A stretch of 27,700 bases of DNA, taken from Campylobacterota bacterium (lineage in GTDB: Bacteria; Campylobacterota; Campylobacteria; Campylobacterales; JALSKU01). Position 1 is the stretch's first letter; the number at the start of each line of letters is the position of its first letter. Where the stretch lies: the NCBI GenBank assembly GCA_013153915.1, contig JAADDL010000046.1:1-27700 (forward strand), given 5' to 3'. Under the pieces are notes generated by a model. It ran no database searches. It saw only the letters and a program-made list of their open reading frames with translations, and was not told the DNA's origin. Of the stretch, positions 807-27,700 are shown piece after piece. A program made the position numbers and the translations under genes.

Positions 807-839
807 ATGACACTTATATATCTTTTTAAAGGATCAGGG

Positions 840-1430
840 GTGGCTATTTTTAAAAAAGAGGAAAAAAAGATCGGTATCATAGAGACTTCTTTAAAGCTGT
901 TCTCTAAAAAGGGATTTTACAACACGACTATACCCGATATCGCAAAAACACTAAATATGAGCGTAGGCAATATGTATAACTACTTCTCTTCAAAAGAGGA
1001 GTTGGCTATGGCTATCATGCGCTATACTTCGGATATACTCGGAGAGAAGATAAGAAAGATAAACAATATGAAAATCACCACTAAAGAGAAGATAAGAAAG
1101 ATAGTGGCGATGTATTTTGAAATAGCGAACAAAAGACCGGAGATGATAGAGTATTTTTTAAGGGTTTATCTATCCAACAGAGATATATTTAAAAACGGTT
1201 GTGAGGGTATGATATGCGTGTCGGCTTTCGTGACTGAGATTATGATATTTTTTGAAGAGGGTGTTAGGTGCGGTGAGCTTAGAGACCAAGACTTCTTTAG
1301 CGCTTTTGGACTTTTTATGGGTTATTTAGGCGGAATGGTCTTTTTAAACGGCGAGGGTGTTTTGGAAAAAAGCTTAAACGACTATATAGACGATATTAGC
1401 GAAAATATCTATTTTGCACTGAAAGCTTGA
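840..1430 (+). CDS. TetR/AcrR-family transcriptional regulator
   Basis: N-terminal HTH IIETSLKLFSKKGFYNTTIPDIAKTLNMSVGNMYNYFSSKEEL. Start placed at GTG 840 (AAAGGA at 828-833), because the ORF-track ATG 807 directly abuts the TATAAT box. Confidence 0.92.
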   Translation: MAIFKKEEKKIGIIETSLKLFSKKGFYNTTIPDIAKTLNMSVGNMYNYFSSKEELAMAIMRYTSDILGEKIRKINNMKITTKEKIRKIVAMYFEIANKRPEMIEYFLRVYLSNRDIFKNGCEGMICVSAFVTEIMIFFEEGVRCGELRDQDFFSAFGLFMGYLGGMVFLNGEGVLEKSLNDYIDDISENIYFALKA

Positions 1431-1433
1431 TGC

Positions 1434-2303
1434 GTGAAGAGTAAAGTTTTATGGATACAGGGTATAACTTGCAACGGCAATACTCAATCCTTTTTAAACT
1501 ATCCCAATATGGAGTATCTTTTAGATAGATACGACTTTTTATACCATCCGTTTTTAGATAGCTCTTTAAGCGTCAATGAGGCGTTAAGATACGATAAAAA
1601 GTTTGATTTTTTGATTGTCGAGGGAGCTGTCTCAAAAGAGTTTATAAGAGCCGGAGAAAACTTTTATCAATCCGTTAAAAAACTTGCGAAAAATGCCAAA
1701 TATATCTTGGCTTTAGGGACTTGTGCGGTATATGGGGGTATCTTTAAAGAGAAAGACCCCAAAAATATAACCGGAGTTTTGTATGACAAAGATGAAGAAA
1801 AAGGGCTTTTAAAAGAGTTTAAAGATAAAGTTGTCAATATCCCCGGTTGTCCGGCGCACCCGGAATGGATTGTGTTTGTTTTGGATTCTCTAAAGGATAG
1901 AGGAGCCGTTATAACGGATGAGTTAAAAAGACCAAAAGAGATATACGGCTATCTAACTCATCATGGATGCACCAGAAATGAGTATTTTGAGTGGAAAGTG
2001 GATAGTAAGGATTTTGGCACCAAAGAGGGGTGTCTTTTTTATCTACAAGGGTGCAGGGCTCCTACGACTCACGGAAGTTGCAACAGAATATTGTGGAATG
2101 AGGTAAACTCCAAAACAAGATCGGGAAGTCCGTGCTTTGGGTGTACCGAGAGTAGTTTTCCAAGAAGCAATATGTTTGAAACAAAAACATTTATGTCCAT
2201 CCCCGCCGATTTGCCCGTAGGTGTATCGAAAAGGGCTTATTTGACGGTTACGGGTATCGCAAAAACCTTCCATATAAAGAGATTGAAAGATAGATTGATA
2301 TGA
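1434..2303 (+). CDS. Cytoplasmic [NiFe]-hydrogenase small subunit, group 2 type (2d-like, HupS/HuaS-like)
   Basis: No Tat signal. Proximal motif WIQGITCNGNT has Asn at the second Cys position, as in group 2a/2d. Also GTCAVYGG, PGCPAHP, HHGCTRNEYF, GCLFYLQGCRAP and PCFGCTE. Confidence 0.88.
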   Translation: MKSKVLWIQGITCNGNTQSFLNYPNMEYLLDRYDFLYHPFLDSSLSVNEALRYDKKFDFLIVEGAVSKEFIRAGENFYQSVKKLAKNAKYILALGTCAVYGGIFKEKDPKNITGVLYDKDEEKGLLKEFKDKVVNIPGCPAHPEWIVFVLDSLKDRGAVITDELKRPKEIYGYLTHHGCTRNEYFEWKVDSKDFGTKEGCLFYLQGCRAPTTHGSCNRILWNEVNSKTRSGSPCFGCTESSFPRSNMFETKTFMSIPADLPVGVSKRAYLTVTGIAKTFHIKRLKDRLI

Positions 2304-3601
2304 AGATAACAAAAGAGATTATTGAAAAGATTGAAGGCGAAGCGAAGCTTGAACTTGAGTGGAAAAAAGGCAAAGTAGTCTCTTCTAAGGTGAAATTTTT
2401 TAGCTATAGAGGTTTAGAAGAGATTATAGAGGGCAGACACCCTATGGACGCTCTTGTGCTTACCCCGAGAGTCTGCGGTATTTGCGGTCATGCCCAGTTG
2501 ATGGCTTGTGTTCATACTTTGGAAAATCTTTATGAAAATTGCGGCGTAAAACTTCATCTAAGCGATAAAGCCAAAAATATCAGAGATATCACTCTTGATG
2601 CCGAAATCATACAAAACCATATAAAATGGCTCTACTTTATCATTTTGCCTATACTATATAGGATAGACGGCAAAGAGTTTGAAAAGCAAAAGATATTTAA
2701 AGCTTTAAACGTAGCCGTTACGGCAACCAAACTCATAGCCGTATTTGCGGGACAGTGGCCTCACAACTCATATATGATACCCGGGGGCGTAGTTTGCGAC
2801 CCTACTTATGTGGAGATTCATCAAGCCAAATCTCTTATAAAAGGTATAATATCCTTTTTTGAAAAAGAGATAGTCAAAACAAAGCTCGGAAATTGTACCG
2901 AGGTAGATAATTTTAAAGAGATACTTGATTGTGGCGGAGTTATGAGCGAAGTTTACGATATCTTGGATAGAAACGATATAAGCGAGGTCGGAAAAGCACA
3001 CGATAGATTTATAGCTTTTGGGGAAAATTCCATCTTCAAATCGGCAAAAGCCATAAGAACTATCACAAGGGCGGTGCACTCAAGATATATCCAAGAGGAG
3101 AGCTTGGACTTTACATATGCTAAAAATGTAAAATATAACGGCAAGTTTTACGAAGTGGGACCTTTGGCAAGGGCTATGGTGGCAAAAAATCCGCTTGCAA
3201 AGAGTATCCATAGAGTATATAAAGATTCGCTTTTAAGCAGAATAGTTTTGAAAATAATGGAGATAGCCTACCTTAGCAAGCATATTGAAAAAAAGCTTAA
3301 CGAGATAGACTTAAACGAAGAGTCTTACATAAAACCTAAAGTCAAGATAGAGTCCCTTGAGGGGAAAGGAGAAGGGTTTGCCGAAGCCGCAAGGGGTTCT
3401 TTATATCATAGTATTGAGGTTGAAAACGGAAAGATAAAAAGCTACGATATCATCACCCCGACACAGTGGAATTTGGGAAATAGCGTCGATAAAGGTGAGT
3501 TATCTACCATCCAGCAAGCGCTTTTGGGACTTGATAACGAAGATGTGGTATCTTTGGTCTTTAGAAGTTTTGACGAGTGTTCCGTTTGCACCACTCATTG
3601 A
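2300..3601 (+). CDS. Cytoplasmic [NiFe]-hydrogenase large subunit, group 2 type (2d-like, HupL/HuaL-like)
   Basis: L1 motif PRVCGICGHAQ and L2 motif SFDECSVCTTH followed directly by the stop. ATGA overlap with the small subunit. Confidence 0.9.
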   Translation: MKITKEIIEKIEGEAKLELEWKKGKVVSSKVKFFSYRGLEEIIEGRHPMDALVLTPRVCGICGHAQLMACVHTLENLYENCGVKLHLSDKAKNIRDITLDAEIIQNHIKWLYFIILPILYRIDGKEFEKQKIFKALNVAVTATKLIAVFAGQWPHNSYMIPGGVVCDPTYVEIHQAKSLIKGIISFFEKEIVKTKLGNCTEVDNFKEILDCGGVMSEVYDILDRNDISEVGKAHDRFIAFGENSIFKSAKAIRTITRAVHSRYIQEESLDFTYAKNVKYNGKFYEVGPLARAMVAKNPLAKSIHRVYKDSLLSRIVLKIMEIAYLSKHIEKKLNEIDLNEESYIKPKVKIESLEGKGEGFAEAARGSLYHSIEVENGKIKSYDIITPTQWNLGNSVDKGELSTIQQALLGLDNEDVVSLVFRSFDECSVCTTH

Positions 3602-3684
3602 TAATCCCCGCAAATAACAATCATAACTTAATAAGTTGAGATAAATTTTACTTAAATTCATTTTTTTAATCATATTTAAAGGTT

Positions 3685-3719
3685 GAATGAATTATCATTC
3701 TATAAATGAATATTCGTAC
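3685..3719. promoter_or_regulatory. Tandem palindromic operator-like sites upstream of hydA
   Basis: GAATGA-atta-TCATTC (3685-3700, perfect 6-bp arms) and a degenerate AAATGA-atat-TCGTAC (3704-3719), ending at the AGGAGG RBS (3720-3725). Confidence 0.5.
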
Positions 3720-3731
3720 AGGAGGTCTTAT

Positions 3732-4889
3732 ATGAACAGAGGTGAAGAGTCGCTAAAGAGAACTTTTAGCAAAAGACTTAAAGAGTTGGCGAAACTTCCT
3801 AAAATCGATGAAAATAAATCGATCTCGTCGATTATGGAAGAAGAAGGAATAAGCAGAAGAGATTTTATGAAGTGGGCGGGCGCTATGACCGCATTTCTCG
3901 GACTCTCCTCTACTTTTACCCCGACAGTTGCGAAAGCGGCAAAACTTGCGGATAGATTGCCGGTTATTTGGCTACATATGGCGGAGTGTACGGGATGTAG
4001 CGAGAGTCTTATAAGGACGGCTACCCCTACGATAGATAGTTTGATATTTGATTATATCTCCTTGGATTATCATGAGACATTGATGGCGGCTGCGGGGTGG
4101 CAAGCCGAAGAAAATCTTGAAAACTCCATCAAGAAGTATAAAGGCAGATATATATTGATGGTCGAGGGAGGTATTCCTACCGGTGATGCCGGTAATTTTC
4201 TTACTATAGGCGGTCACGGTAAAAAAGGAAAAGACATAGCAAAAGACGCGGCAAGCGATGCGGCGGCGATATTTGCCATAGGTACATGTTCTAGTTTCGG
4301 AGGAGTGCAAGCGGCGGCTCCAAACCCTACAAGTGCGGTACCGTTGAGTAAAGTGACAAATAAACCGGTTATCAATGTGCCGGGTTGTCCTCCAAGCGCA
4401 AAGAATATAGTAGGCACTTTACTTCACTTTATACTTTTTGGCACTCTTCCCGCACTTGACGCTTTCAATAGACCTAAGTGGGCTTACGGACATAGGATAC
4501 ATGACCTTTGTGAAAGAAGAGGACATTTTGATGCGGGTGAATTTGTAGAACAGTTCGGCGACGAGGGGGCGAAAAACGGATATTGTCTATATAAAGTCGG
4601 CTGTAAAGGTCCTTATACTTTCAATAACTGTTCAAGAGAGAGATTTAACCAGCACACATCTTGGCCCGTTCAAGCGGGACACGGCTGTATAGGTTGTAGC
4701 GAACCTGACTTTTGGGATAGCATGGGACCGTACGAAGAGCCTGTGGCGGATCATCTTTATAAAACCGTTTTCGGCGGACTCGGTGCGGATGCTACGGCGG
4801 ATAAGATAGGCTTGGGACTTTTGACGGTAACGGCCGTAGGTATAGCCGCTCATGCCGCCATATCGGTAGTTAAAAAACCAAAAGAATAA
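3732..4889 (+). CDS. hydA: Group 1b membrane-bound uptake [NiFe]-hydrogenase small subunit
   Basis: Tat motif SRRDFMK, AECTGCSES, GTCSSFGG, PGCPP, HDLCERRGHF, CLYKVGCKGP, GHGCIGCSE and a C-terminal membrane anchor. Start at ATG 3732 with AGGAGG 6 nt upstream. Confidence 0.96.
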   Translation: MNRGEESLKRTFSKRLKELAKLPKIDENKSISSIMEEEGISRRDFMKWAGAMTAFLGLSSTFTPTVAKAAKLADRLPVIWLHMAECTGCSESLIRTATPTIDSLIFDYISLDYHETLMAAAGWQAEENLENSIKKYKGRYILMVEGGIPTGDAGNFLTIGGHGKKGKDIAKDAASDAAAIFAIGTCSSFGGVQAAAPNPTSAVPLSKVTNKPVINVPGCPPSAKNIVGTLLHFILFGTLPALDAFNRPKWAYGHRIHDLCERRGHFDAGEFVEQFGDEGAKNGYCLYKVGCKGPYTFNNCSRERFNQHTSWPVQAGHGCIGCSEPDFWDSMGPYEEPVADHLYKTVFGGLGADATADKIGLGLLTVTAVGIAAHAAISVVKKPKE

Positions 4890-4905
4890 CCTAAGGAGAA
4901 TATAA

Positions 4906-6642
4906 ATGGCAACAAAAAGAGTAGTAGTAGACCCGATTACTAGAATAGAAGGACACTTAAGAGCCGAAGTGGTCGTTGATGAAAACAATGTGGTAAAAGA
5001 GGCGTATGTCGGCTCGACGCTTTGGAGAGGTTTGGAGGTGATAGCAAAAGGTAGAGACCCAAGGGATGTGCCTTTTATCATGCAAAGAATATGCGGTGTT
5101 TGTACATATTCGCACTATCTAAAAAGCACTATGGCGGTAGAGGACGCTCTTGGTATCAAGCCTCCTTTAAATGCGGAGCTTACTAGGACGCTTATGAATG
5201 CCGCTTTGTTTTTGCATGATCACCCCGTACACTTTTATCAACTTCACGGAGTTGACTGGGTGGATGTAGTTTCGGCTTTGAGTGCCGATCCTAAAAAAGC
5301 GAGCGAGCTTGCTTTTAAATATAGCGACAATCCTATCGGTACGGGAGAGAACGAATTAAAAGCGGTACAAGAAAGAGTGGCTAAATTTGCCAAATCTCCT
5401 ATGGGGCTTGGACCGTTCGCTAACGCTTACTGGGGACATAAAACTTACCACTTCACGCCCGAGCAAAACTTGATAGCTCTTTCACACTATCTAAAGACGC
5501 TTGAGATGCAAAGAACGGCGGCTCAAATGTTGGCGATATTCGGCGGAAAGATGCCTCATCCTCAAAGTTTAACCGTAGGCGGCGTAACTTGTGTTATGGA
5601 TCTTTTGGATCCTGCCAGACTTGGAGAGTATATGGTAAAATTCCAAGAGATGGCTAACTTTGTCAATAACGCTTATTATGCCGATTTATTGATGGCTGCC
5701 GAAGCTTATAAAGCAGAGCCGTCCGTAACGATGCCTTCGGGAGTGAAGGATTTTATGGCATACAAAGAGTTCTTGGTGGGAAGAGACGATTATCTGTTTG
5801 AGAGCGGATATATCACCGATAGAGATTTAAGCAAAGTGTATGAGATAGACACCAAACTCATAACCGAAGAGGCGACACACTCATGGTATAAGGATAATGA
5901 AGCCTTGCATCCGTACGACGGCAAAACAAATCCTAACTATACGGGATTTGTAGAGGGTAAAAGCGTCGGAAGCAACGGAGAGATGATAGATAGCAAACTC
6001 TTTAACGAAAAAGAGAAATACTCTTGGATAAAAGCTCCAAGATACGATAAAAAACCTATGGAGGTAGGACCTCTTGCCTGCTTGGTGGTAAACTACGCAA
6101 AAGGAAACAAGAGAGTTACGAAAGCGGTAAATGAATTTTTACAAAAGACGGGATTGCCTCCTGCGGCTTTATTTACTACGCTCGGTAGAACGGCGGCTAG
6201 AATGTTGCAAACTAAGATAATAGCCGACAACGCTTTGACGGCGTTTAATAGCTTGGTGGAAAATCTAAAGGTTGACCAAAGCACTTGCGCTCCGTATGTG
6301 ATAGATAAAAATAAAGAGTACAAAGGTCTTGGTATCGGAGATGTTCCAAGGGGTATGCTAAGTCACTGGATAAGGATCAAAAACGGAGTTGTGGAGAATT
6401 ATCAAGCCGTAGTGCCTAGTACTTGGAACGCAAGTCCGATGGACGCAAACGGCGTTCACGGACCTTATGAGGCAAATTTGTTGGGTCTAAAGATAGACGA
6501 TCTTTCAAAACCTTTGGAAATAATTAGGATAATCCACTCATTTGATCCTTGTATAGCTTGTGCCGTTCATGTTATGGACACCAAAGGTAATGAGTTGGGT
6601 AGCTATAAGGTAGATCCGTTGTACGGCGGATGCAGTCTATAA
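4906..6642 (+). CDS. hydB: Group 1b [NiFe]-hydrogenase large subunit
   Basis: DPITRIEGHL, QRICGVCTYSH and FDPCIACAVH, followed by a cleavable C-terminal extension. RBS AAGGAG. Confidence 0.97.
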   Translation: MATKRVVVDPITRIEGHLRAEVVVDENNVVKEAYVGSTLWRGLEVIAKGRDPRDVPFIMQRICGVCTYSHYLKSTMAVEDALGIKPPLNAELTRTLMNAALFLHDHPVHFYQLHGVDWVDVVSALSADPKKASELAFKYSDNPIGTGENELKAVQERVAKFAKSPMGLGPFANAYWGHKTYHFTPEQNLIALSHYLKTLEMQRTAAQMLAIFGGKMPHPQSLTVGGVTCVMDLLDPARLGEYMVKFQEMANFVNNAYYADLLMAAEAYKAEPSVTMPSGVKDFMAYKEFLVGRDDYLFESGYITDRDLSKVYEIDTKLITEEATHSWYKDNEALHPYDGKTNPNYTGFVEGKSVGSNGEMIDSKLFNEKEKYSWIKAPRYDKKPMEVGPLACLVVNYAKGNKRVTKAVNEFLQKTGLPPAALFTTLGRTAARMLQTKIIADNALTAFNSLVENLKVDQSTCAPYVIDKNKEYKGLGIGDVPRGMLSHWIRIKNGVVENYQAVVPSTWNASPMDANGVHGPYEANLLGLKIDDLSKPLEIIRIIHSFDPCIACAVHVMDTKGNELGSYKVDPLYGGCSL

Positions 6643-6653
6643 AGGAGTAGATA

Positions 6654-7337
6654 ATGGCGGAAATACATACACAGTGTTTAGAGAGAGAAGAGGAGTTTAC
6701 GCCTTCTTATAGATGGCAACACTGGATAAGGGCTTTATCTATAGTTGTTTTGGTGGCGACGGGATTTTATATAGCCGTTCCTTTTATAACCCCTGCGCCA
6801 AATCCTGAGCCGACGGGAGCTTTGCAGAGCTATTTTAGAGCTTTTCATCTCTTTTTCGGCTTTTTATTGATAGCGGTAGTCATTTTTAAAAGCTACATCT
6901 TCCTTTTTGTTAAAGACAGTACGGGAGAGAGAAAGTCCTTGGCGGATCTTTTTTCTCCCTCTGTTTGGGCAAAGCAGATAGGATACTATCTGTTTATAAC
7001 AAGACATCCGAAGCTAAGAGGGACATACAATCCCGTACAGTTTGCGGCTTATATAGGATTTTATCTGATGATATTCGGTATCATTTTGACGGGACTTATG
7101 CTTTATGTGCAAGTTTATCACGACGGACTTGCGGGTGCGCTTTATGCGCCTATGATGAAATTGACCGCTATGATGGGCGGGCTTGCCGTAGTAAGAGAAG
7201 TGCATCATATACTCACTTGGGGTATTATACTTTTCGTAACGGTGCATATCTATATGGCGACATTTAACGCAATTTACGGAAAAGACGGCTCTATGGACGC
7301 TATCTTTAGCGGTCTAAAGTGGCATAGCAAACACTAA
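6654..7337 (+). CDS. hydC: Hydrogenase cytochrome b subunit (quinone-reactive)
   Basis: Four hydrophobic segments with heme-ligand His residues (WQHWIRA, FHLFFG, VHHILTW, VHIYMA) and the YNPVQ motif. Confidence 0.93.
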   Translation: MAEIHTQCLEREEEFTPSYRWQHWIRALSIVVLVATGFYIAVPFITPAPNPEPTGALQSYFRAFHLFFGFLLIAVVIFKSYIFLFVKDSTGERKSLADLFSPSVWAKQIGYYLFITRHPKLRGTYNPVQFAAYIGFYLMIFGIILTGLMLYVQVYHDGLAGALYAPMMKLTAMMGGLAVVREVHHILTWGIILFVTVHIYMATFNAIYGKDGSMDAIFSGLKWHSKH

Positions 7338-7391: not shown

Positions 7392-7418
7392 AACACTTCC
7401 GACTTGAAAGGATATTTT

Positions 7419-7964
7419 GTGAAGATTTTAATACTCGGTATCGGCAATGTGCTTTTCGGAGATGAGGGTATAGGTGCGTATATGGCGCACTATCTCAATA
7501 AAAATTACGCTTTTATCTCCGATGAGCATAGTGTGGATGTGGTTGACGGCGGAACTTTGGCTCAAAGACTTATACCTATCATAGTCGAGTACGATATGGT
7601 CTATATAGTTGATTGCGTGGATGTCAAAGACGCAAAAGTGGGGGATGTGTTCTTTTTTGATTATGAAAAGATGCCTCCATATATAACTTGGCAGGGGAGT
7701 GCTCATGAAGTTGAGATGCTTCAGACCTTGCAAATGATAGATATGTACGGAGATAGACCGCCTACGAAGATAGTAGGGGTTGTGCCTTATGTGATAGGAG
7801 AGGATTCCACTTTTAGCTTGACGGACGATATGAAAAAATCGGCGGGAACAATACTAAAAATCATACTTGACGAACTTGAAAAACTGGGAGTCAAATCCGT
7901 AAAAAAGGCAAACTATACGCTTGATGAGGTGATAGAGGGGGTTTGTTTGGAGGGTGTTAGATGA
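7419..7964 (+). CDS. hydD: Hydrogenase maturation endopeptidase
   Basis: ILGIGNVLFGDEGIG, VDGGT, IVDCV and SAHE motifs. Start placed at GTG 7419 (AAAGGA at 7407-7412). Confidence 0.94.
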   Translation: MKILILGIGNVLFGDEGIGAYMAHYLNKNYAFISDEHSVDVVDGGTLAQRLIPIIVEYDMVYIVDCVDVKDAKVGDVFFFDYEKMPPYITWQGSAHEVEMLQTLQMIDMYGDRPPTKIVGVVPYVIGEDSTFSLTDDMKKSAGTILKIILDELEKLGVKSVKKANYTLDEVIEGVCLEGVR

Positions 7965-9790
7965 TTCTTAGATTTGATTTTGAATATGTCTCGACTTCGG
8001 GATTTTTATATGCCCTTCTTGAAAAAAAGCTCAAAGAGTCGTCTTTAAAAGGCGTTATTGCAAATGACGGCGATAAGATATCTTTGTATGTTGAGGCGGA
8101 TGAAGAGAGTTTGAAAAGTTTTGCCGACGATTTGTCGCTATCGATACCTTACTCTATATTTTTAAAAGATACGGATGTGACGGCGGTATCGAAGATGCCT
8201 ACGATATCCAAGCAGACAAAGATAAAACATAAAAGAGCTTTGCCGTTTTGTCCCGAGTGCTATAAAAAAGCCCTTAAATCGTATGACCCTTTTGTTGAGT
8301 GTGAAGCTTGCGGATACGGTGTAAAAAAGTCCGATTTGGTATATAAAAACTTTGCAAAAACCGTTACCAAAGATAATAAAGAGATATTTTCCAATCTCGC
8401 AAAAGCCGTATCAAACGGCGGTGTAGCCAAGATAAAGACATTTAACGGTATAAGATCGGTAGGTTTGGTGCAAGAGAAATATTTAGGCACAGGGGATGAT
8501 TTTGAGATAGTATGCGCCGACCTTGACGAGGTACATGAATATTTCCAACTCGATAAGGCTCAAATGCTAGCTTTGGGAAGTTTTGAAAAACCCGTTATCG
8601 CTTTGAAACCTAAAAACGGTTTTTTTCTAAAATATCCGTTTTTGGAGAGTTTGGCAAAGGTAAAGGTTAGATTGAGCGATGATTTGATACTTGAGATATT
8701 GATAAATGAGTTAAAAAGTTTTTCGCTAAAGCATATTTTTATCAAAAAAGTAAAAGCAAAGGACAGTTTCAATCTTGAGCTAGGTTTTGAGAGTGATATT
8801 CAAGATAGAGACTCTCTTGAAGCGGTGGTTTTAAAAAACGCTCAAATCGTTTTAAAAAGAGGCATAAGGACTCTTTTGCCGAAAGTGGATAAGGGCTACC
8901 AAAAAGAGGTTTGTGCTAAAAGTGAAAAATTTTTATCGAAAAATAGCAACGGATATATCGTAACAAATATCGCAAAAGAGCCTTTTGAGTGTGATAGAGT
9001 GTTTAGTCTCGCTAAAGGCGAACTATCTTACAAAGCTTCGCACGGCGCGTTTTATGCCTCTTTGAGCGAACACGGCTTGTATGATAAGACGATAGTCGGG
9101 GTGTATATGAGTAAAGAGCATGAGAGTAGCGTTATGATATACTCCGACAAGTTTGGTCTGGTGGAGCATATGAAATTTGAATTTTCATTTCCAAATAGCG
9201 TTGAAAAGCTGATGGAGTCGCTATCTAAAGAGGGTAAAACCTCTTTGAAACTGGTATCAAACTATATGTCAAAGTTTTCTAAACTAAAAGATAAAAAACT
9301 CTCTTTTTCAAAAGCGGCGGATATATTTGAACTATGGGGAGTTGCGGGTATAGTGCTTGGTCTTTATGAGGGAGAGGATGTAAAAGAGTCGGCAAAAAGA
9401 GTGCTGGAGTTAGCCGAGTCGTTTAACGGCAAAAAAGGTCCAAGGATTGATTATAAACTAAAAAGATACCAAGATAAACCCGTTCTTGACGCCTCGAAAG
9501 TGATAAAAACATCTATGAGTTATAAGCTGGCGTCCATGGATGCGTTCACTTTATGCTACGGTATAGTGGAGAGTTTTGCGGAGTTTGTAAACGACCTTAT
9601 AGATGAGATGGCAAAGGATTATAGTGTTGAAGGGGTCTGTTTTGGCGGTTCGCTGTTTGAGTCCGAAAAACTGCTTGAAAAGTTTTATACTATAACCGAT
9701 AAAAATTACAAAGTCTATCCATATAAAGAGTTTATACTTGATGATATGAATCTAGGATACGGAATCATCAATGCGGCACTTAGAGATTGA
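7961..9790 (+). CDS. hydE: Campylobacterota HydE-type hydrogenase accessory protein (degenerate HypF-like architecture)
   Basis: Sits between hydD and hypF. Has one CPEC..CEAC pair, and its C-terminal VCFGGSLFESEKLL parallels HypF VVLSGGVFQNKTLL. Confidence 0.7.
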   Translation: MILRFDFEYVSTSGFLYALLEKKLKESSLKGVIANDGDKISLYVEADEESLKSFADDLSLSIPYSIFLKDTDVTAVSKMPTISKQTKIKHKRALPFCPECYKKALKSYDPFVECEACGYGVKKSDLVYKNFAKTVTKDNKEIFSNLAKAVSNGGVAKIKTFNGIRSVGLVQEKYLGTGDDFEIVCADLDEVHEYFQLDKAQMLALGSFEKPVIALKPKNGFFLKYPFLESLAKVKVRLSDDLILEILINELKSFSLKHIFIKKVKAKDSFNLELGFESDIQDRDSLEAVVLKNAQIVLKRGIRTLLPKVDKGYQKEVCAKSEKFLSKNSNGYIVTNIAKEPFECDRVFSLAKGELSYKASHGAFYASLSEHGLYDKTIVGVYMSKEHESSVMIYSDKFGLVEHMKFEFSFPNSVEKLMESLSKEGKTSLKLVSNYMSKFSKLKDKKLSFSKAADIFELWGVAGIVLGLYEGEDVKESAKRVLELAESFNGKKGPRIDYKLKRYQDKPVLDASKVIKTSMSYKLASMDAFTLCYGIVESFAEFVNDLIDEMAKDYSVEGVCFGGSLFESEKLLEKFYTITDKNYKVYPYKEFILDDMNLGYGIINAALRD

Positions 9791-12089
9791 GAGATACAAG
9801 ATAAAGATTGAGGGCGTAGTCCAAGGTGTGGGATTTCGTCCTTTTGTGTATAGTATCGCTAAAAAGCACGATATAAAAGGTTTTGTAAAAAACTCTTCGG
9901 AGGGTGTTTTTATAGAAGCGGAAGGGACAAAAGAGAGTTTGCAAAAGTTTTTACTGGAGTTTAAAACCTCTTTGCCTCCTCTTGCCAAGATAGATAAAAT
10001 CTCTTTGGAAAATATAGAGATAAAAGGAAGTTGCGATTTTAAGATAGAAAAAAGCACACACTCCGATACCAAATATGCCTCAATCTCTCCCGATATCGCT
10101 ATATGCGAGGATTGTCTTAGAGAGTTAAGAGATAAAAATGATAGAAGATACGGCTATTATTTGATAAATTGCACAAATTGCGGTCCTAGATATACTATCG
10201 TAGAGAGAGTGCCTTACGATAGGAAAAATACCTCAATGAAGAGGTTTAGGATGTGTAACGAGTGCGAAAAAGAGTATGAAGACCCAAGCGATAGACGCTA
10301 TCATGCTCAGCCTATCTCTTGCCATAAGTGCGGACCTTTGGTGAAATTTTACAAGACTTACAAAAAAGAGATATTAGCTAGCAATGAAGAGGCTATAAAA
10401 CTTTGCGCAAAAAGCATAAAAAGAGGCAATATCGTAGCCGTAAAGGGGCTTGGAGGTTTTCATATAGTGTGTAGTGCCACTTCTCCAAAGTCGGTTAAAC
10501 TGCTTAGAAAAAGAAAAAACAGACCCACAAAACCGTTTGCTGTGATGTTTAAAAGTATAGAGGAGATAAAAAAGGTAGCGATACTCACCGAAAAAGACGA
10601 GGAGTTGATACTCTCCAAAGAGAAACCTATCGTAATCGTCAAGAAAAAAGAGCCTCACAAATTTAGAAAAAGAGAGTTGCCTATCACCTCTTTTGTGGCT
10701 CCCGCTATCGATAGGATAGGGGTCTTTTTACCCTATACCCCTTTACATCATCTGCTTTTTGAATATATTGAGTGTCCTATCGTAGCTACAAGCGCAAATC
10801 TTAGTAATGAACCTATCATAAGAGATATAGACGAGTTGTGTCAAAAGCTTGATAATGTAGCGGATTATGTTTTGGATTTCAATAGAGATATCATCAATGC
10901 TTGCGATGATAGCGTGGTGCAAGCGGTAAATAACAAAAAAGAGACTCTTAGGCTCGCAAGAGGTTATGCCCCAAGATATCAAAAACTCCCCTTTAAGCTA
11001 AAAGATAAAGTACTTTGCGTGGGGGCAAACCAAAAAGCCACTATCACTTTGGCTTATGAAGATATTTTGGTGACAAGTCCTCACATCGGAGATCTTGGCA
11101 GTATAGAGTCTATGGAGTATTTTGAAAGGACTATAGAGAGCTTTAAGAGGTTTTACGATTTTGAGCCAAATATTATCGTTTGTGATAAACATCCAAGTTA
11201 CGAAACGACTAAGTGGGCAAAAGAGTACCAAAATAGCCATAGTGAAACAAAACTCTTTCAAGTCCAACACCACTACGCTCATATCCTATCTTGTATGGCG
11301 GAGTTTGATATCAATGAAAAAGTTTTGGGATTTAGCTTTGACGGTACGGGATACGGCGATGACGGAACTATATGGGGCGGAGAAGTCTTTGAATGCGATA
11401 CTAAGAGTTATGAGAGAATTTATCATTTTAAAGATATAAAGCTCATAGGAGCTAATAGGGCTATAAAAGAGCCAAAAAGAGTGGCTTTGGCTATGCTTTT
11501 TGAAGAGTACGGTTTGAAAGATACGCTAAAACTAAGCAATCCTACCGTAAAAAGCTTTACGAAAATCCAGATAAAAAATCTCTACACGATATGGAAAAAC
11601 ACAACGCTAAAAACCAGCTCTTTGGGTAGAGTTTTTGACGGAGTCGCCAGTCTTTGCGATATTTTGCAAGTGAGTAACTATGAGGGTGAAAGTGGGCTTA
11701 TTTTGGAGTCTTTTTATGACGGAAGCATAAAAGATAGTTTTGAATTTGATATCAAAGATAAAGAGATAGCTTTTAAGGATTTGGTGCAAAAAAGTTTAGC
11801 TATCATGAAAGAAAATCTAAATATAAAAGATAAAAAAAGAGCGGTTTCTACGATGTTTTTAAATACTCTTACAAAGATAATCCTTCGTATCTCTAAAGAA
11901 TCAAAGCTCGATACGGTAGTTTTAAGCGGAGGTGTTTTTCAAAACAAGACTCTTTTGGAGATGGCTACAAACGAACTTGAAAAGGCTGGTAAAAAGGTCT
12001 ATTTTCAGCAAAATACCCCTATAAATGACGGCGGTATCTCTTTGGGACAAGCTTGGTGGGCGGTAAAAAACTTAGACTCTCTATCCTAA
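9771..12089 (+). CDS. hypF: Carbamoyltransferase HypF
   Basis: Acylphosphatase GVVQGVGFRPF, Zn fingers CEDC/NCTNCGPRY/MCNECEKEY/CHKCGP, KGLGGFH, RPTKPFAVM, QHHYAH, FDGTGYGDDGTIWGGE and NDGGISLGQ. Confidence 0.97.
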   Translation: MRHLEIERYKIKIEGVVQGVGFRPFVYSIAKKHDIKGFVKNSSEGVFIEAEGTKESLQKFLLEFKTSLPPLAKIDKISLENIEIKGSCDFKIEKSTHSDTKYASISPDIAICEDCLRELRDKNDRRYGYYLINCTNCGPRYTIVERVPYDRKNTSMKRFRMCNECEKEYEDPSDRRYHAQPISCHKCGPLVKFYKTYKKEILASNEEAIKLCAKSIKRGNIVAVKGLGGFHIVCSATSPKSVKLLRKRKNRPTKPFAVMFKSIEEIKKVAILTEKDEELILSKEKPIVIVKKKEPHKFRKRELPITSFVAPAIDRIGVFLPYTPLHHLLFEYIECPIVATSANLSNEPIIRDIDELCQKLDNVADYVLDFNRDIINACDDSVVQAVNNKKETLRLARGYAPRYQKLPFKLKDKVLCVGANQKATITLAYEDILVTSPHIGDLGSIESMEYFERTIESFKRFYDFEPNIIVCDKHPSYETTKWAKEYQNSHSETKLFQVQHHYAHILSCMAEFDINEKVLGFSFDGTGYGDDGTIWGGEVFECDTKSYERIYHFKDIKLIGANRAIKEPKRVALAMLFEEYGLKDTLKLSNPTVKSFTKIQIKNLYTIWKNTTLKTSSLGRVFDGVASLCDILQVSNYEGESGLILESFYDGSIKDSFEFDIKDKEIAFKDLVQKSLAIMKENLNIKDKKRAVSTMFLNTLTKIILRISKESKLDTVVLSGGVFQNKTLLEMATNELEKAGKKVYFQQNTPINDGGISLGQAWWAVKNLDSLS

Positions 12090-14359
12090 TATAAATAACA
12101 TTTTTTAGCTCTTTTTGCTTTATTATATATCCTGTCTATGATTTTGGCGCTGTTTATCTTTTTCATAAGTTTTATAGCCAATTTGGATGTTTTGGGAGTA
12201 TTGCAAAGCATAGCTCTAAAAGTATAGTAAAGCGCTTTTTGGGGAGCCTTGTTGAGTATATTTTGGGCTTTTGCAAGAAGAAGATATCCGTAGTCCGTGT
12301 AGTTTGTGCCGAGATATTTAGCTTTGCCCGTTATGATATACAAAAGGTATCGGGCTTTCGAATTTGTGTTATAGCCTTTTATGGTGTAAATCGTACGCAG
12401 TGCTTTTTGTTTATCTTTTTTGTTGAGGTAGAATTTTGCCAATTTTATCTTTGCATCTTTTAAACCCAAAGAGGCGGCTTGTTTGTATAGTTGGATGATT
12501 TGTTTGTCATATTCGCCTTTTAGGTTTATTTTTCTTAGAAGGGTGGCTTTTTTGTAAATGGCATTATGGTATCCTTGGCTTATAGCTTTATCGTAGTAAA
12601 AGACGGCTTTTTGAGGGTTTAAATCGACACCATATCCGTTTGCATAGGCATCCGCTATGGTGAGGATTGAGCGTATGTCATCTTTTTCTTTTAGATAGTT
12701 TAAAGCTTTTTTAAAATCCCCTTCGACATATCTTGAGACGATAAGAGAGTAATATATGTCTTTTGCGTCGATATCGGACTCATCCAATAACTCTTTTAGC
12801 CATCTATCCATCTTTTTATAATCACAATTTTTTTTGTGAAAATCAACAAGATAGCGTTGGGCTTGCCTATTTTTCATTTGTGCGTAGTAGTAGTATATTC
12901 CCAAGGCTTTGTTTTCATCTTTTAGGATATTGTTATAGTAGTTTGCTATCTTCAAATCCTCGCTCGGGATATAAAAAGGCTTTTTCTCCAGCTTGCACGC
13001 TTTTTTGTAGTAAGAAAAACTCTTTTGCTTATCGGGATATATTTTGTTGGCATACAAGCTTCCAAGATAGTTTAGCGCCAAAATATTGTCTTGATTTGCA
13101 AAATACTCCAATGTTTTTCTATTTTTTTCTATATTTTTATATACCAAGGCTTCTTGGTAGGCTTTTTCTATAACGGCAGGGGTAAATTTGATATTTGTTA
13201 AATAGTTAAGATATTCATAATCCACCCTTTTTTCAAACCTCTTTTCATATTGATATAGATGCCAGTATGCTTGGGGTTTGTTTATGTGTTCGTACCATTT
13301 ATATATCTCTTTTGCCGATTTGCGGGAGTTTAGATATAGATATTTTTCGTATATTTTTGCCAAGATAAGCTTTGACTTGACATCTTGTTGAGAGTTTAAG
13401 AAGCTAACCGTGGAGTTCAAATCAAATCCGCTATAAGTTTTGTCGGAAAGCTCATAAGTGTTATCTTCGATATCAAGATCTATCAATCTATAAATAGCTT
13501 TTTTGTTGCCTAATCTATAAGATGACTTGTAAGCTTTTTGGATATTTTTTCTTGTAAAAATATCATTGTATTTGTAGATATAAAGTTTATCGTCAAATAG
13601 TTTTTTAGTCGTTTTAGAGTTGCTTGAGATGCACTTTTTGTTGTAAAGTTTTTCGTTTTCAACCATTTTGTCATATAGGTAATTTCCGACATAATATGCG
13701 GCTTTGGCATCTTTATACACCATCTCTTTTAACAAAGTGTAACCCTCTTTTTTATCCTCATTGTTTATAAGATAAACTCCAAGTATCACTTTTGCTTTAT
13801 CGTACCCTTGTCGTATCGCATTTTTGAGTAGTTTTTTAGCTCTTGTCGGGTTATAAAGAGGAGATTTTTTTAGGTAATATTTTCCAAGTTCCGTTTGAAA
13901 CTTTTTAAGGTCGGATTTGAGTGTAAAAGTGTAAAGTTTATCTAACAACTCTATCTTTTTATCAATGTTGTTTAGTCGGTCGAGTGCCGTTAGATAGTTT
14001 TTGAAATCTTTAGCCTTATAATCTTTGAAATCAACTTTTTCATACCATTTTAACGCATTTTGATACTCTTTTTCTCTAAAATATGAATCCGCTACATAGA
14101 TATTTGCTTTATCATATCCGTTTTCAAGGGCAAAAAGTGCGTATTTTCTCTCCGTAAAGGGCGGCTTTTTCACTCTATCAAGATAGATAAGTCTTGCGAT
14201 TTTTTCCGAAGCGTCAGGGAAGCCTCTTTTGGCATATTCGTAGTACTCCTCGTAGGCTTTTGCGTAATTTTTACTTCTATAATAATTTGCCGCCGCTCTT
14301 TTGTTGGCACACCCCGTAAATAAAAGCGATAAAACAAAAACTAAACTAAACAATCTCAT
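12086..14359 (-). CDS. algK: AlgK-like Sel1/TPR-repeat lipoprotein scaffold for polysaccharide export
   Basis: Lipobox LFTGC after MRLFSLVFVLSL, with AGGA 6 nt upstream of ATG 14359. Repeated Sel1-like units such as ALNYLGSLY and IADAYANGYGVDLNPQKAVFYYDKA. Last gene of the alg operon. Confidence 0.75.
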   Translation of the reverse strand: MRLFSLVFVLSLLFTGCANKRAAANYYRSKNYAKAYEEYYEYAKRGFPDASEKIARLIYLDRVKKPPFTERKYALFALENGYDKANIYVADSYFREKEYQNALKWYEKVDFKDYKAKDFKNYLTALDRLNNIDKKIELLDKLYTFTLKSDLKKFQTELGKYYLKKSPLYNPTRAKKLLKNAIRQGYDKAKVILGVYLINNEDKKEGYTLLKEMVYKDAKAAYYVGNYLYDKMVENEKLYNKKCISSNSKTTKKLFDDKLYIYKYNDIFTRKNIQKAYKSSYRLGNKKAIYRLIDLDIEDNTYELSDKTYSGFDLNSTVSFLNSQQDVKSKLILAKIYEKYLYLNSRKSAKEIYKWYEHINKPQAYWHLYQYEKRFEKRVDYEYLNYLTNIKFTPAVIEKAYQEALVYKNIEKNRKTLEYFANQDNILALNYLGSLYANKIYPDKQKSFSYYKKACKLEKKPFYIPSEDLKIANYYNNILKDENKALGIYYYYAQMKNRQAQRYLVDFHKKNCDYKKMDRWLKELLDESDIDAKDIYYSLIVSRYVEGDFKKALNYLKEKDDIRSILTIADAYANGYGVDLNPQKAVFYYDKAISQGYHNAIYKKATLLRKINLKGEYDKQIIQLYKQAASLGLKDAKIKLAKFYLNKKDKQKALRTIYTIKGYNTNSKARYLLYIITGKAKYLGTNYTDYGYLLLAKAQNILNKAPQKALYYTFRAMLCNTPKTSKLAIKLMKKINSAKIIDRIYNKAKRAKKCYLY

Positions 14360-14367
14360 ACCGTTTC

Positions 14368-24826: not shown

Positions 24827-25480
24827 TTAAATTAGCCCTTTAATAATCTCAAATCTACTTTTTTCGTCATAATTAAATCTAAATTCACACTCTTTTAAAT
24901 AGTAAAAAAAGTTTTCCCTTTTTACACCTTTATATTTGACTATCTCATTTTCAAAGAAATTCCAAAATTTGACTATCAAATTTTCCCTTTTTTGGAGTTT
25001 TGATATCTTGTTAAACATCATAAAGTTGGAAAACTCTTTGTAGTAAGCTTGGTCTATCCCGTCGCTTAAAAGTTCATTTTTGTACTTATTAAGACTTGGC
25101 AGTAAAAGGTTGTATATCTTATTTTCATAATGAAAGGTCAAGAAATCCACCGCATCGAAAATCTTGCTCTGTTCTTTCTTTTTGGATTTTTCCAGGTAGA
25201 TATATTCGTCATACTCTATCACCTCTTTGCCTTGAAAATTCTCTTCGCAAAATAGGGCTATTTTTTTTCGAAACAAATCGTATCTTTTTTTTACGGTTAG
25301 GTAATTTAGGGAAGTTTTATTAGAACACTCAAGAGCGTTTAAACCTTTGCAAAAGCATTCGAGTATATTTAACTCTTTTTCTATCTTTTTGGGGCTGAAT
25401 TTTCTTTTGCATACTTTGCATTTTAGGTAGCCGTTTTTAAGGGTGTAAAAAGTTTCGTTTTCGCAATATTTACACTTCAT
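24827..25480 (-). CDS. IS1595-family (ISXO2/IS1016-like) transposase-derived protein, apparently catalytically degenerate
   Basis: Zn ribbon C3/C6/C21/C24, an HTH-like segment, IEYDEY, and FW...KYKGV...YLKECEFRFN C-terminus. The NxIExFW glutamate is replaced (NLIVKFW). No terminal inverted repeats found by eye. Confidence 0.75.
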   Translation of the reverse strand: MKCKYCENETFYTLKNGYLKCKVCKRKFSPKKIEKELNILECFCKGLNALECSNKTSLNYLTVKKRYDLFRKKIALFCEENFQGKEVIEYDEYIYLEKSKKKEQSKIFDAVDFLTFHYENKIYNLLLPSLNKYKNELLSDGIDQAYYKEFSNFMMFNKISKLQKRENLIVKFWNFFENEIVKYKGVKRENFFYYLKECEFRFNYDEKSRFEIIKGLI

Positions 25481-25557: not shown

Positions 25558-25587
25558 TATAATTACGAATGATTATTCATATAGGAG
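25558..25587 (+). promoter_or_regulatory. nik operon promoter: -10 box, operator-like palindrome and RBS
   Basis: TATAAT at 25558-25563, GAATGA-ttat-TCATAT at 25567-25582, AGGAG at 25583-25587. Confidence 0.55.
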
Positions 25588-25594
25588 TTAAAAG

Positions 25595-26233
25595 ATGCAT
25601 ATACCTGACGGATATCTTTCGCCCGAAACCTGTATAGCGACCTATGCGGTAGCGGTTCCATTGTGGGTTTACGGATTTAAAAAGTTAAAATCGACTTTAA
25701 ATGAAGAGACTTTGCCGCTTATAGGGGCTTTGAGCGCCGTTAGTTTTGTTATCATGATGTTTAACATCCCGATACCCGGAGGCACTAGCGGACACGCCGT
25801 AGGGGCGGTGCTTATAGCGATGCTTTTTGGTCCTTGGATCGGCTTTGTATCGGTATCTTTGGTGCTACTTATCCAAGCTTTGGTCTTTGGCGACGGTGGA
25901 GTATCGACTCTTGCGGCAAACGCATTGTCGATGGCTTTTGTGGGCTCTTTTGCTGGATATTACGCTTTTGAAGCTTTAAAGAGATTTAGATTTGCACCGT
26001 TTTTTGCGGGATGGGTAGGTATAGTCGCCTCTTCCGCACTCACGGCTTTGCTTCTTGGTATCCAGCCTCTTTTTTGGACAAAAGGCGGACACCCTTTGTA
26101 TTTTCCGTTTGATTTGAAGACCGCTTTTGTAGCGCTTGTGGGTTCTCATATGCTGTTTTTCGGAGTAGCGGAGGGCATCTTTACCGCCATAGCTTACTCA
26201 TATCTTAGAAAAAAAGAGAGGAGTTTGGCATGA
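25595..26233 (+). CDS. nikM: ECF nickel/cobalt transporter S component (NikM/CbiM type; nickel favoured)
   Basis: N-terminal metal-binding MHIPDGYL (NikM-type, versus MHIMEG in CbiM), GTSGHAVG and FGDGG, with multiple TM helices. Confidence 0.88.
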   Translation: MHIPDGYLSPETCIATYAVAVPLWVYGFKKLKSTLNEETLPLIGALSAVSFVIMMFNIPIPGGTSGHAVGAVLIAMLFGPWIGFVSVSLVLLIQALVFGDGGVSTLAANALSMAFVGSFAGYYAFEALKRFRFAPFFAGWVGIVASSALTALLLGIQPLFWTKGGHPLYFPFDLKTAFVALVGSHMLFFGVAEGIFTAIAYSYLRKKERSLA

Positions 26234-26529
26234 AACGAAAGGCTTTTTATATTTTGGGGGTTTTGATAGTTCTTTCTCCTCTTGGTCTTATCAGCGATGC
26301 GGACGCTTGGGGAGAGTGGGGCAATGAGTACTACCAAAAGATACTCGGATTTATCCCCGAGGGGATAAAGAACGCAAAAGGTATAAAGGCTTTGATGAGT
26401 GATTATTCTCTTAGCGGTACAAATGATGTAGTCGGCTACTACGCTTCCGCAATCGTAGGGATAGCTATACTTTTTGGGATATATTTTATCCTTGCAAAAA
26501 CGCTAAAAGATGAAAAAAGTATTCTTTAA
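26230..26529 (+). CDS. ECF Ni/Co transporter auxiliary membrane subunit (NikN/PDGLE-like)
   Basis: Two TM segments around SPLGL...AWGEW. Overlaps both neighbouring genes. Confidence 0.7.
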   Translation: MKRKAFYILGVLIVLSPLGLISDADAWGEWGNEYYQKILGFIPEGIKNAKGIKALMSDYSLSGTNDVVGYYASAIVGIAILFGIYFILAKTLKDEKSIL

Positions 26530-27091
26530 AAAACACCGCTTTTTTCAAACGGTTTTAAATCTATATAGAGTATCTTTTATCGTAACTCTCTTGGCGCTTT
26601 TGTGGCTAAGAGATGTACGAGTGATATTTGTCGTGACGGTTTTGCTGTGGATAGTCTCATATAGAGATGTTGTAAAATTAAATAAAAGAGTGCTAAAGTC
26701 CATTTTTTTATTTAATGCGGGGATAAGTTTGGGATATGTGGCACTCTCTTTTTTTAAAGATGTGGATGTTTTGAGCTTTTTGGTATATATCAACCTAAAA
26801 GTCTATCTTTTGACATATTTTGTGTTTTGGTTTTTCAAAAGAGTCGATATGATAGAGTTTTTCTCCTTTTCAAAGGAGTTAAGCTACCTTTTGAGTATAT
26901 CTTTGTCTCAGATAGTTTCGTATAAAAAAACTTATGAGGATTTTAGGCTTGCCTATAAAGCCAGAGTGATAAAGAGATTGAGAGATAGAGAAAAAGGGTT
27001 TATCGGTAGAGTGTTTGACTTTTTCTTGCAAAAGGCGCTAAAAGATGCCAAAGAGAGAAGTTTGGCGATGAAAGCGAGGGGATTTTTTTGA
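26510..27091 (+). CDS. ECF transporter T component (NikQ/CbiQ-like)
   Basis: Hydrophobic N-terminal half, with C-terminal AYKAR and AMKARGF (the ARG motif of T components). Confidence 0.8.
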   Translation: MKKVFFKKHRFFQTVLNLYRVSFIVTLLALLWLRDVRVIFVVTVLLWIVSYRDVVKLNKRVLKSIFLFNAGISLGYVALSFFKDVDVLSFLVYINLKVYLLTYFVFWFFKRVDMIEFFSFSKELSYLLSISLSQIVSYKKTYEDFRLAYKARVIKRLRDREKGFIGRVFDFFLQKALKDAKERSLAMKARGFF

Positions 27092-27700
27092 TAAGTTTGA
27101 GAGATATATCTTACTTTTACGATGACAAGATAGCGTTAAACGATATAAGTCTTGATATAAACAGCAAAGAAAAGGTTGTTTTGCTTGGAAGCAACGGATG
27201 TGGCAAATCAACCCTTCTTAGAGTTTTGGCGGGTCTTTACTTTGCAAAAAGCGGAGAGTATCTGCTTGAGGGCAAAAAGATAACCAAAAAGAGTGTCGAT
27301 AAAGAGTTTAGAAAAAGAGTCGGCATACTTTTTCAAAATCCTGAAAGTATGATATTTAATCCCACGGTAAGAGATGAGATAGCCTTTTCGCTTAGAGAGT
27401 TTGAAGAGAGCGATATAGAAAAAAGGGTGGAGGATATATCTAAAAAGTTCGGTTTGACTCACCTTTTAGATAAAAATCCTCTTTATCTAAGCGGTGGGGA
27501 GAAGCAAAAGGTGATGTTGGCGTCGATGTTGGTATATGAGCCCGATATACTTCTGCTAGACGAACCGACGGCGGCAATGGATCCGAGAACTACGGGGTGG
27601 TTTATAGATATGCTTTTGGAGTTGCAAAAGAGTGTTGTGGTGGCTACGCATGATCTCTCGCTGGCTTATGAAATGAGCGATAGAGCGATAGTCTTGGATG
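27088..27700 (+). CDS. ECF transporter ATPase (NikO/CbiO-like), truncated by the window end; not in the ORF track
   Basis: TTG start overlapping the previous TGA. Reads MISLRDISYFY, Walker A GSNGCGKST, Q-loop LFQNP, LSGGEKQK, Walker B ILLLDEPT and VATHD. Confidence 0.9.
   Translation, partial: MISLRDISYFYDDKIALNDISLDINSKEKVVLLGSNGCGKSTLLRVLAGLYFAKSGEYLLEGKKITKKSVDKEFRKRVGILFQNPESMIFNPTVRDEIAFSLREFEESDIEKRVEDISKKFGLTHLLDKNPLYLSGGEKQKVMLASMLVYEPDILLLDEPTAAMDPRTTGWFIDMLLELQKSVVVATHDLSLAYEMSDRAIVLD

Follow-up and report, generated by a model that had tools for sequence, protein, structure and literature searches.

The regulatory relays of group 2b hydrogenases are HoxBC-HoxJ-HoxA in Cupriavidus necator and HupUV-HupT-HupR in Rhodobacter. 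The locus described here resembles these systems in that a small cytoplasmic, Tat-less [NiFe] hydrogenase (HupSL) is encoded beside the uptake hydrogenase that would be controlled, and in that HupL is without a C-terminal extension and, in the genome under study, also has Gln at the L1 position. However, no histidine kinase/response regulator pair accompanies it and a one-component TetR-family regulator is found in their place. Kinase and receiver domains were absent from the 20 ORFs scanned in the window (the whole stretch of DNA that was analysed, 27.7 kb), three long minus-strand ORFs at 12086–18683 being outside the scan, and 12 related loci were compared only with the proteins of the window.

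E. coli NikR recognises the operator GTATGA-N16-TCATAC. The NikR systems of E. coli (nikABCDE) and Helicobacter pylori are similar to the arrangement proposed here in that import and a nickel enzyme are placed under one repressor with an operator that overlaps the promoter. They differ in that NikR is a ribbon-helix-helix protein rather than a TetR protein, in the spacer between the half-sites, which is only 4 nt here, and in distribution, as searches of this genus gave no NikR.

A nearly identical operator has been described for the Bacillus regulator FadR. In B. subtilis, the FadR (YsiA) box is WTGAATGAMTANTCATTCAN, to which the protein binds as a dimer of dimers (PMC5397183). In a crystal structure with the fadR operator of B. 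halodurans, GATGAATGAATACTCATTCAT, two TetR dimers occupy a pair of 16-bp inverted repeats that are shifted by 4 bp relative to each other, and each monomer reads ATGA(A/G)T (PMC5397183).

In Sulfurospirillum multivorans, a TetR-like gene upstream of hupSL has been suggested to encode a repressor of hupSL itself (PMC5357620; Goris 2014, Kruse 2017). This gene is in the orthologous position to the regulator gene described here, but that work described neither an operator nor a connection with hydABC or nickel transport. A search of the literature on Campylobacterota found no operator, no TetR control of hydABC and no nickel link, the only passing mention being that in PMC5357620. What is new here is the recurrent link to nikM, the identity of the box with that of FadR together with its two-dimer geometry, the co-occurrence of box and regulator at the level of families, and the exclusion of NikR, Fur and a transposase-derived protein as the binding protein.

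Gene content of the window

The window is an entire contig of a metagenome-assembled genome (MAG) that is 65% complete, with a size of 1.25 Mb and 37% G+C. Pfam searches gave the gene order in the 5′ part as rhodanese, tetR, hupS, hupL, hydABC, the gene for the HyaD protease, a gene for a 609-aa HypF-C-like protein, and hypF. An alginate-type operon follows hypF on the opposite strand, and at the far end of the contig a gene for a zinc-ribbon protein with no Pfam match is divergent from nikM and the genes for a PDGLE-domain protein, a NikQ-like protein and NikO (Table 1). The nikO gene is incomplete, as the contig end cuts this ABC ATPase gene. No terminator was predicted between positions 3560 and 3760, at the tetR-hupSL/hydA junction, in scans of the E. 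coli type, which are uninformative for promoters and terminators on the AT-rich promoters here. The maturation genes are probably co-transcribed with hydABC. The 609-aa protein (7961–9790) matches HypF only faintly, in the second Kae1-like subdomain, and its gene overlaps the start of the true hypF (9771); its position is kept in several families at 21–49% identity.

Table 1. Genes and putative operator sites in the 27.7 kb window
Feature	Coordinates	Strand	Remarks
TetR-family regulator, FadR-like clade	807..1430	+	Proposed binder of the box; PF00440, E 1.7e-14
hupS	1434..2303	+	Cytoplasmic [NiFe] hydrogenase small subunit, Tat-less; start 4 nt past tetR stop
hupL	2300..3601	+	Large subunit, without C-terminal extension; Gln replacing L1 histidine
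Putative operator S1	3685..3700	+	GAATGAATTATCATTC; perfect 6-4-6 palindrome just 5′ of likely -10 TATAAA (3701-3706)
Putative operator S2	3701..3721 (core 3704-3719)	+	Core AAATGAATATTCGTAC; matrix score 21.9
hydABC	3732..7337	+	Periplasmic membrane-bound uptake hydrogenase; proposed target
hydA	3732-4889	+	
hydB	4906-6642	+	
hydC	6654-7337	+	
Maturation genes	7404..12089	+	HyaD protease, 609-aa HypF-C-like protein, hypF
IS1595-derived zinc-ribbon protein	24827-25480		Divergent from nikM
Putative operator S3	25564..25584 (core 25567-25582)	+	Core GAATGATTATTCATAT; matrix score 24.9, best in the genome
nikM (CbiM), PDGLE-domain protein (nikN-like), nikQ-like, nikO (ABC ATPase)	25595..27699	+	Proposed second target

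Palindromic sites upstream of hydA and nikM

The three palindromes from which the original prediction had set out, two upstream of hydA and one upstream of nikM, were located exactly where it had placed them when the sequence was checked. S1 and S2 lie on opposite sides of the likely hydA -10 element TATAAA. S2 overlaps this element and the likely transcription start, abuts the ribosome site, and is followed by AGGAGG (3720–3725) and the hydA ATG at 3732. S3 is located between TATAAT (25558–25563) and the ribosome site of nikM, the ATG of which is at 25595. S2 had been described as a degenerate tandem copy of S1. While all three sites are present, the best fits to the conserved box were found to be S2, which is the counterpart of the single conserved hydA box in other families, and the nikM site, and S1 is an additional upstream site restricted to this genus. 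S1 is kept in the same-genus genomes G003, G010 and G006, with variants in G009, G005 and G004, and its fit to the cross-family matrix is weak (8.6 to 14.0).

A scan of the 1.25 Mb genome for RAATGA-N4-TCRTWY identified 6 positions, 3 of which are these sites. When up to two mismatches from GAATGA-N4-TCATTC were allowed, 15 sites were found, and among these only the hydA and nikM sites combine an all-A/T spacer with a promoter position. As the argument from rarity in the genome is partly circular, conservation is the test that counts. A weight matrix trained mostly on the sites of other families ranked the nikM site first in the genome (24.9) and S2 second (21.9), a ranking that is also partly circular because both sites were in the training set; in simulated genomes (n=3), no matrix score reached 20. 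Independent support for the sites thus comes from conservation at orthologous promoters, and on this evidence from sequence the palindrome at hydA and nikM is real, widely conserved and not due to chance.

Conservation of the box in related genomes

Loci from 80 species (GTDB) were retrieved with the TetR protein and 52 of these contain a hydA start, with a site scoring at least 13 found within 250 nt upstream of hydA in 49 of the 52. The loci span Sulfurimonas, Sulfurospirillum, Arcobacteraceae, Nitratiruptor, Nautiliaceae and many MAGs. The consensus of the box is TGAATGA-wT-ATTCATTy, and its usual place is between the hydA -10 element and the ribosome site, starting ~3 nt past the former and ending at the latter. 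When 55 distinct promoters were anchored on the site, 16 of the 17 positions of TGAATGA.TATTCATTT were found to carry 1.1–2.5 bits, the exception being the central spacer position with zero information. Outside the box the information content is ~0–0.5 bits, except for a -10-like element that ends immediately before it and the ribosome site, which follows after a few bases. The spacer is constant at 4 nt across all sites.

Footprinting across relatives bore out the conservation expected of a regulatory site, as ten hydA promoters, from the same genus and from other families, carry the box. The hydA promoters of the same genus keep the tandem S1 and S2 sites and those of seven other families have a single site. 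In each of 5 complete relatives, GAATGA-W4-TCATT is matched exactly at just one place in the genome, namely at hydA, and the other near matches examined in those relatives (7 loci) are mostly within ORFs. A regulon this small and local is what would be expected for a dedicated TetR-type repressor.

The position of the box varies in some lineages. In the Nautiliaceae loci L193, L214 and L191, and in L101 (genome G022), the box is just upstream of tetR and not between hupL and hydA, and one operator may control the whole tetR-hupSL-hydABC unit in these organisms. In the Sulfurimonas loci L149, L155 and L160, two hydABC clusters flank tetR-hupSL, with boxes at approximately -31 and -100 upstream of hydA.

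Co-occurrence of the box with a TetR regulator

In 40 relatives, the matrix score upstream of hydA was 12.3 to 28.4 when an orthologue of the TetR regulator was encoded and -6.2 to 7.3 when it was not. The box was present in 9 of 9 families with the regulator and in 0 of 8 hydA-bearing families without it, and the scores never overlap, with the matrix partly trained on genomes that are counted in this comparison. The gene order tetR-hupS-hupL-box-hydABC is kept across families and the tetR-hupS-hupL trio in almost every locus. The regulator is 65–72% identical across families, compared with 42–56% for HupSL. No consistent box was found upstream of tetR in 17 loci, the exceptions being the Nautiliaceae loci, G022 and G001, and autoregulation was rejected on this ground. 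From these genomic comparisons, it is most likely that the box belongs to the TetR regulator encoded next to hupSL.

Resemblance of the regulator and its box to FadR

The FadR box of B. subtilis and the sequence TGAATGAwTATTCATTyA found here are nearly identical. The geometry is also alike, as the box contains overlapping ATGAAT repeats, which are those read by two dimers in the B. halodurans crystal, and in both cases a protein of the TetR fold would overlap the promoter as a repressor does. This two-dimer geometry explains why the site can be read in two registers, the 6-4-6 register of the original prediction and a 5-4-5 register, TGAAT-N4-ATTCA.

An AlphaFold2 model of the regulator (pLDDT 86.8) was compared with known structures, and all of the top PDB matches were TetR proteins. 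The highest TM-scores were obtained with B. subtilis FadR (3whc/3whb; 0.78/0.84, rmsd 2.5 Å), and those with B. halodurans FadR (5gp9) were 0.76/0.83. With a sequence profile FadR was not the top match, the similarity was mainly in the N-terminal ~95 residues, and the C-terminal domain of the regulator aligned poorly to FadR. This C-terminal domain has invariant motifs of its own, including CEGMxC. The recognition-helix pattern G-x-x-Y-x-Y is common in the TetR family, and thus the recognition helix alone is no proof of specificity.

The regulator further differs from FadR in that its gene is in an operon with hupSL. While FadR of Bacillus responds to long-chain acyl-CoA and its targets are genes for fatty-acid degradation, the targets here are a hydrogenase and a nickel importer. 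No fad genes were found at the top-scoring sites with annotated neighbours, and the boxes are at hydA, nikM and a gene for a DUF3373 protein. From its sequence and model, the regulator would seem to combine a DNA-reading head of the FadR type with a sensory domain of another kind.

The box upstream of nikM

The sequence GAATGAAAATTCATT was found at the same place in four other nikM orthologues of the genus, directly after a TAAAAT -10 element, and TGAATGACCATTCA is at the same place upstream of nikM in G038, which belongs to another family. A search of the order for the box followed after 8–40 nt by a nikM start found this arrangement in 8 of 401 genomes, 401 being the number of genomes covered and not of nikM genes. 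The boxed genomes, namely five of the same genus, G038 and two of genus g4, represent three genera in three families, and the reversed pattern used as a control was found in none. G038 encodes a single member of this TetR clade, yet boxes are present at both hydA and nikM, which favours a single protein acting at both.

The original prediction that one regulator links hydrogenase expression with nickel uptake, for which the local TetR was among the candidates listed, is supported by these findings, since hydABC and nikMNQO share an operator. The name Ni regulon was an overstatement, as hydA is the universal target and nikM is boxed in only three genera. Judging from the sites upstream of them, the synthesis of the hydrogenase and the supply of nickel seem to be under a common switch.

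Other possible targets and paralogues

On contig C72 (locus L137), a perfect TGAATG-AG-CATTCA repeat is present at ~4195–4215, about 75–115 nt upstream of a minus-strand gene (2628–4124) for a secreted DUF3373 protein of 498 aa. A repeat of the form (G/A)TGAAT-N4-ATTCAT with a variable spacer is found at this gene in four genomes of the genus, including G002, G003 and G007, with a variant in G005, and it is possible that the DUF3373 gene is a third member of the regulon. A weak box, AATGAATGAAATTTCA, with a score of 13.3, was found at ~2585–2605 on contig C161 (L139), ~84 nt upstream of a MrpF/MnhG/MbhD/MnhB-like operon that may encode a membrane-bound hydrogenase or an antiporter module. In L137, two GAACATATGTTC palindromes (4300–4375) flank the likely -10 element of a gene (4359–4673) for a DUF134 protein, which is sigma-70 region 4-like, and these look like a separate autoregulatory operator.

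Paralogues of the regulator were also found. On contig C20 (L138), the gene at 398–985 encodes a TetR paralogue with ~50% identity and an identical recognition helix, and is located directly upstream of pstS-pstC-pstA-pstB-phoU (1049–5368). It is possible that this pst-linked paralogue binds the nikM or DUF3373 sites in this genus. In G036 (L083 / L108), two more TetR paralogues (51% and 49%) are encoded in tandem behind the hydrogenase cluster, with a box, TTTGAATGGGCATTCATTT, just downstream of them.

Alternative explanations

If the pst-linked paralogue or some other protein were to bind the nikM box in this genus, and that of the DUF3373 gene, with the hydA box left to the TetR encoded with hupSL, there would be no true co-regulation. 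The paralogue shares the recognition helix MSVGNxYNYF and is found in most genomes of the genus, and in the order as a whole only 3 genera have a box at nikM. However, both promoters are boxed in G038 with its one clade member, the nikM box is the best match in the genome to the cross-family hydA matrix, and no box was found near the pst operon of the paralogue in 9 loci, except for one locus in G036, making this division of targets unlikely. An element that acts in the RNA, as a hairpin in the 5′-UTR or as the target of a small RNA, is extremely improbable. Given its place between -10 element and ribosome site, the box is probably transcribed in part, and S1 folds at -4.8 kcal/mol. However, folding of S2 and of the nikM site yields no more than -0.6 and -1.7 kcal/mol, the half-sites keep their sequence instead of covarying, most of the sites can be scored on either strand, and in Nautiliaceae the box is upstream of tetR instead.

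The remaining candidates of the original prediction were a metal regulator and the transposase-derived protein. The genome has two Fur-family genes, and AATGA resembles part of the Fur box as well as part of the NikR half-site GTATGA, yet a site for NikR or for a Fur-family protein (Fur, Zur or a nickel-specific paralogue) is very unlikely. The spacing is always 4 nt, compared with the 3 nt of the AATGA-N3-TCATT core in the 7-1-7 or 19-bp geometry of a Fur box and the 16 nt, about two helical turns between half-sites, of NikR sites in E. coli, so that neither the NikR resemblance nor the Fur-like half-site that had been noted was upheld. The presence of the box follows the TetR gene and not a ubiquitous family, which argues that it is not Fur-type, and no genes for iron or zinc uptake were found at the top-scoring sites with annotated neighbours. 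NikR was rejected as the binder, as a search for NikR_C (PF08753) gave no match in this 65%-complete genome or in 10 genomes of the same genus, several of which are 100% complete; in the control, PF08753 was found in 5 reference genomes. A search of the 40 relatives found NikR_C mostly where the box is absent, in 6 genomes with hydA but no box and in only one with the box. Many hydrogenase clusters encode the IS1595-derived zinc-ribbon protein, the gene for which is syntenic with nikM or hypF in G038, G013, G024, G026, G036 and G032. This protein did not follow the box, as it is present in the box-less genomes G019 and G040 and no match to it was obtained in the complete, boxed genomes G028 and G033, and the box is nearly identical to a known operator of the TetR type. 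It was rejected, and the chance that it binds the box is again very small. In G015, only a partial match to it was found.

NikR and the TetR linked to hupSL are almost mutually exclusive among the hydA-bearing genomes, with both found only in G032 and neither in five, and this may reflect shared ancestry or functional replacement.

Proposed mechanism

The preferred explanation is that the palindromes are operators of the TetR repressor encoded upstream of hupSL, to which we assign a probability of roughly 75%, with binding and repression inferred from sequence and by analogy with FadR. Two TetR dimers would bind the overlapping ATGAAT-N4-ATTCAT repeats as in the FadR–DNA crystal of B. halodurans. 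As the box runs from ~3 nt past the -10 element to the ribosome site, the bound repressor would block the initiation of transcription of hydABC and of the maturation genes behind it. In this genus the box has the same position at nikMNQO, and the nickel importer would thus be released together with the nickel enzyme that it supplies.

Because both promoters would respond in the same direction, nickel makes poor sense as the signal, since either the hydrogenase would be shut down at times of abundant nickel or the importer would be induced by the very metal that it takes up. A signal with the meaning that hydrogenase should now be made would fit better. Tentatively, the releasing signal might be H2 or redox state, passed from HupSL to the regulator, a suggestion based on the regulator being co-transcribed with HupSL in almost every species, being more conserved than HupSL, and having the invariant cysteine pair of CEGMxC. 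The two invariant cysteines are C132 and C137, and the C-terminal domain is unusually invariant. In such a scheme, HupSL would oxidise H2, electrons would reach Cys132/Cys137, or the two proteins would be in direct contact, and the repressor would leave its FadR-type operators. It is conceivable, though doubtful, that TetR and HupSL together form a hydrogen sensor of the one-component style, through which the uptake hydrogenase would be turned on, along with nickel import in certain lineages.

HupL ends in ...CSVCTTH, and 58 of 61 orthologues have no C-terminal extension. A missing C-terminal extension is a feature of regulatory hydrogenases (PMC8159394). The L1 motif of HupL is RVCGICGHAQ, and Gln in place of the conserved L1 histidine is a feature of the sensor type (PMC5665086). 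The orthologues have Gln in 3 of 61 cases and His in 58, and the sensor-type Gln was rejected as a feature of the clade. In S. multivorans, the membrane-bound hydrogenase (hydB) was reported to be constitutive and hupL to be barely transcribed (PMC5357620). This pattern of expression argues against a simple H2 switch in that organism.

Biological implications

At vents and in sulfidic sediments and aquifers, Campylobacterota owe much of their primary production to hydrogen oxidation, and we know of no regulator of an uptake hydrogenase in Campylobacterota outside Helicobacter. The outcome of this analysis is a putative operator of 17 bp, a named candidate repressor, and a tiny predicted regulon that comprises hydABC and, in some genera, nikMNQO. 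The resemblance to the FadR box suggests that the same type of TetR head for reading DNA was combined with another sensory domain and put to use in an unrelated pathway. If correct, the control of a nickel importer and its client enzyme by a regulator outside the metal-responsive families would be an uncommon way of allocating a metal, and the co-control of the importer may be the reason that searches of these lineages gave no NikR.

To our knowledge, no function has been demonstrated for the cytoplasmic HupSL, and the scheme above, if true, would provide a role for a hydrogenase group that has lacked one ever since Sulfurimonas and Sulfurospirillum genomes were first sequenced. HupSL and TetR would then represent a third and much simpler way in which bacteria sense H2, beside the sensor hydrogenases linked to kinases and to cyclases.
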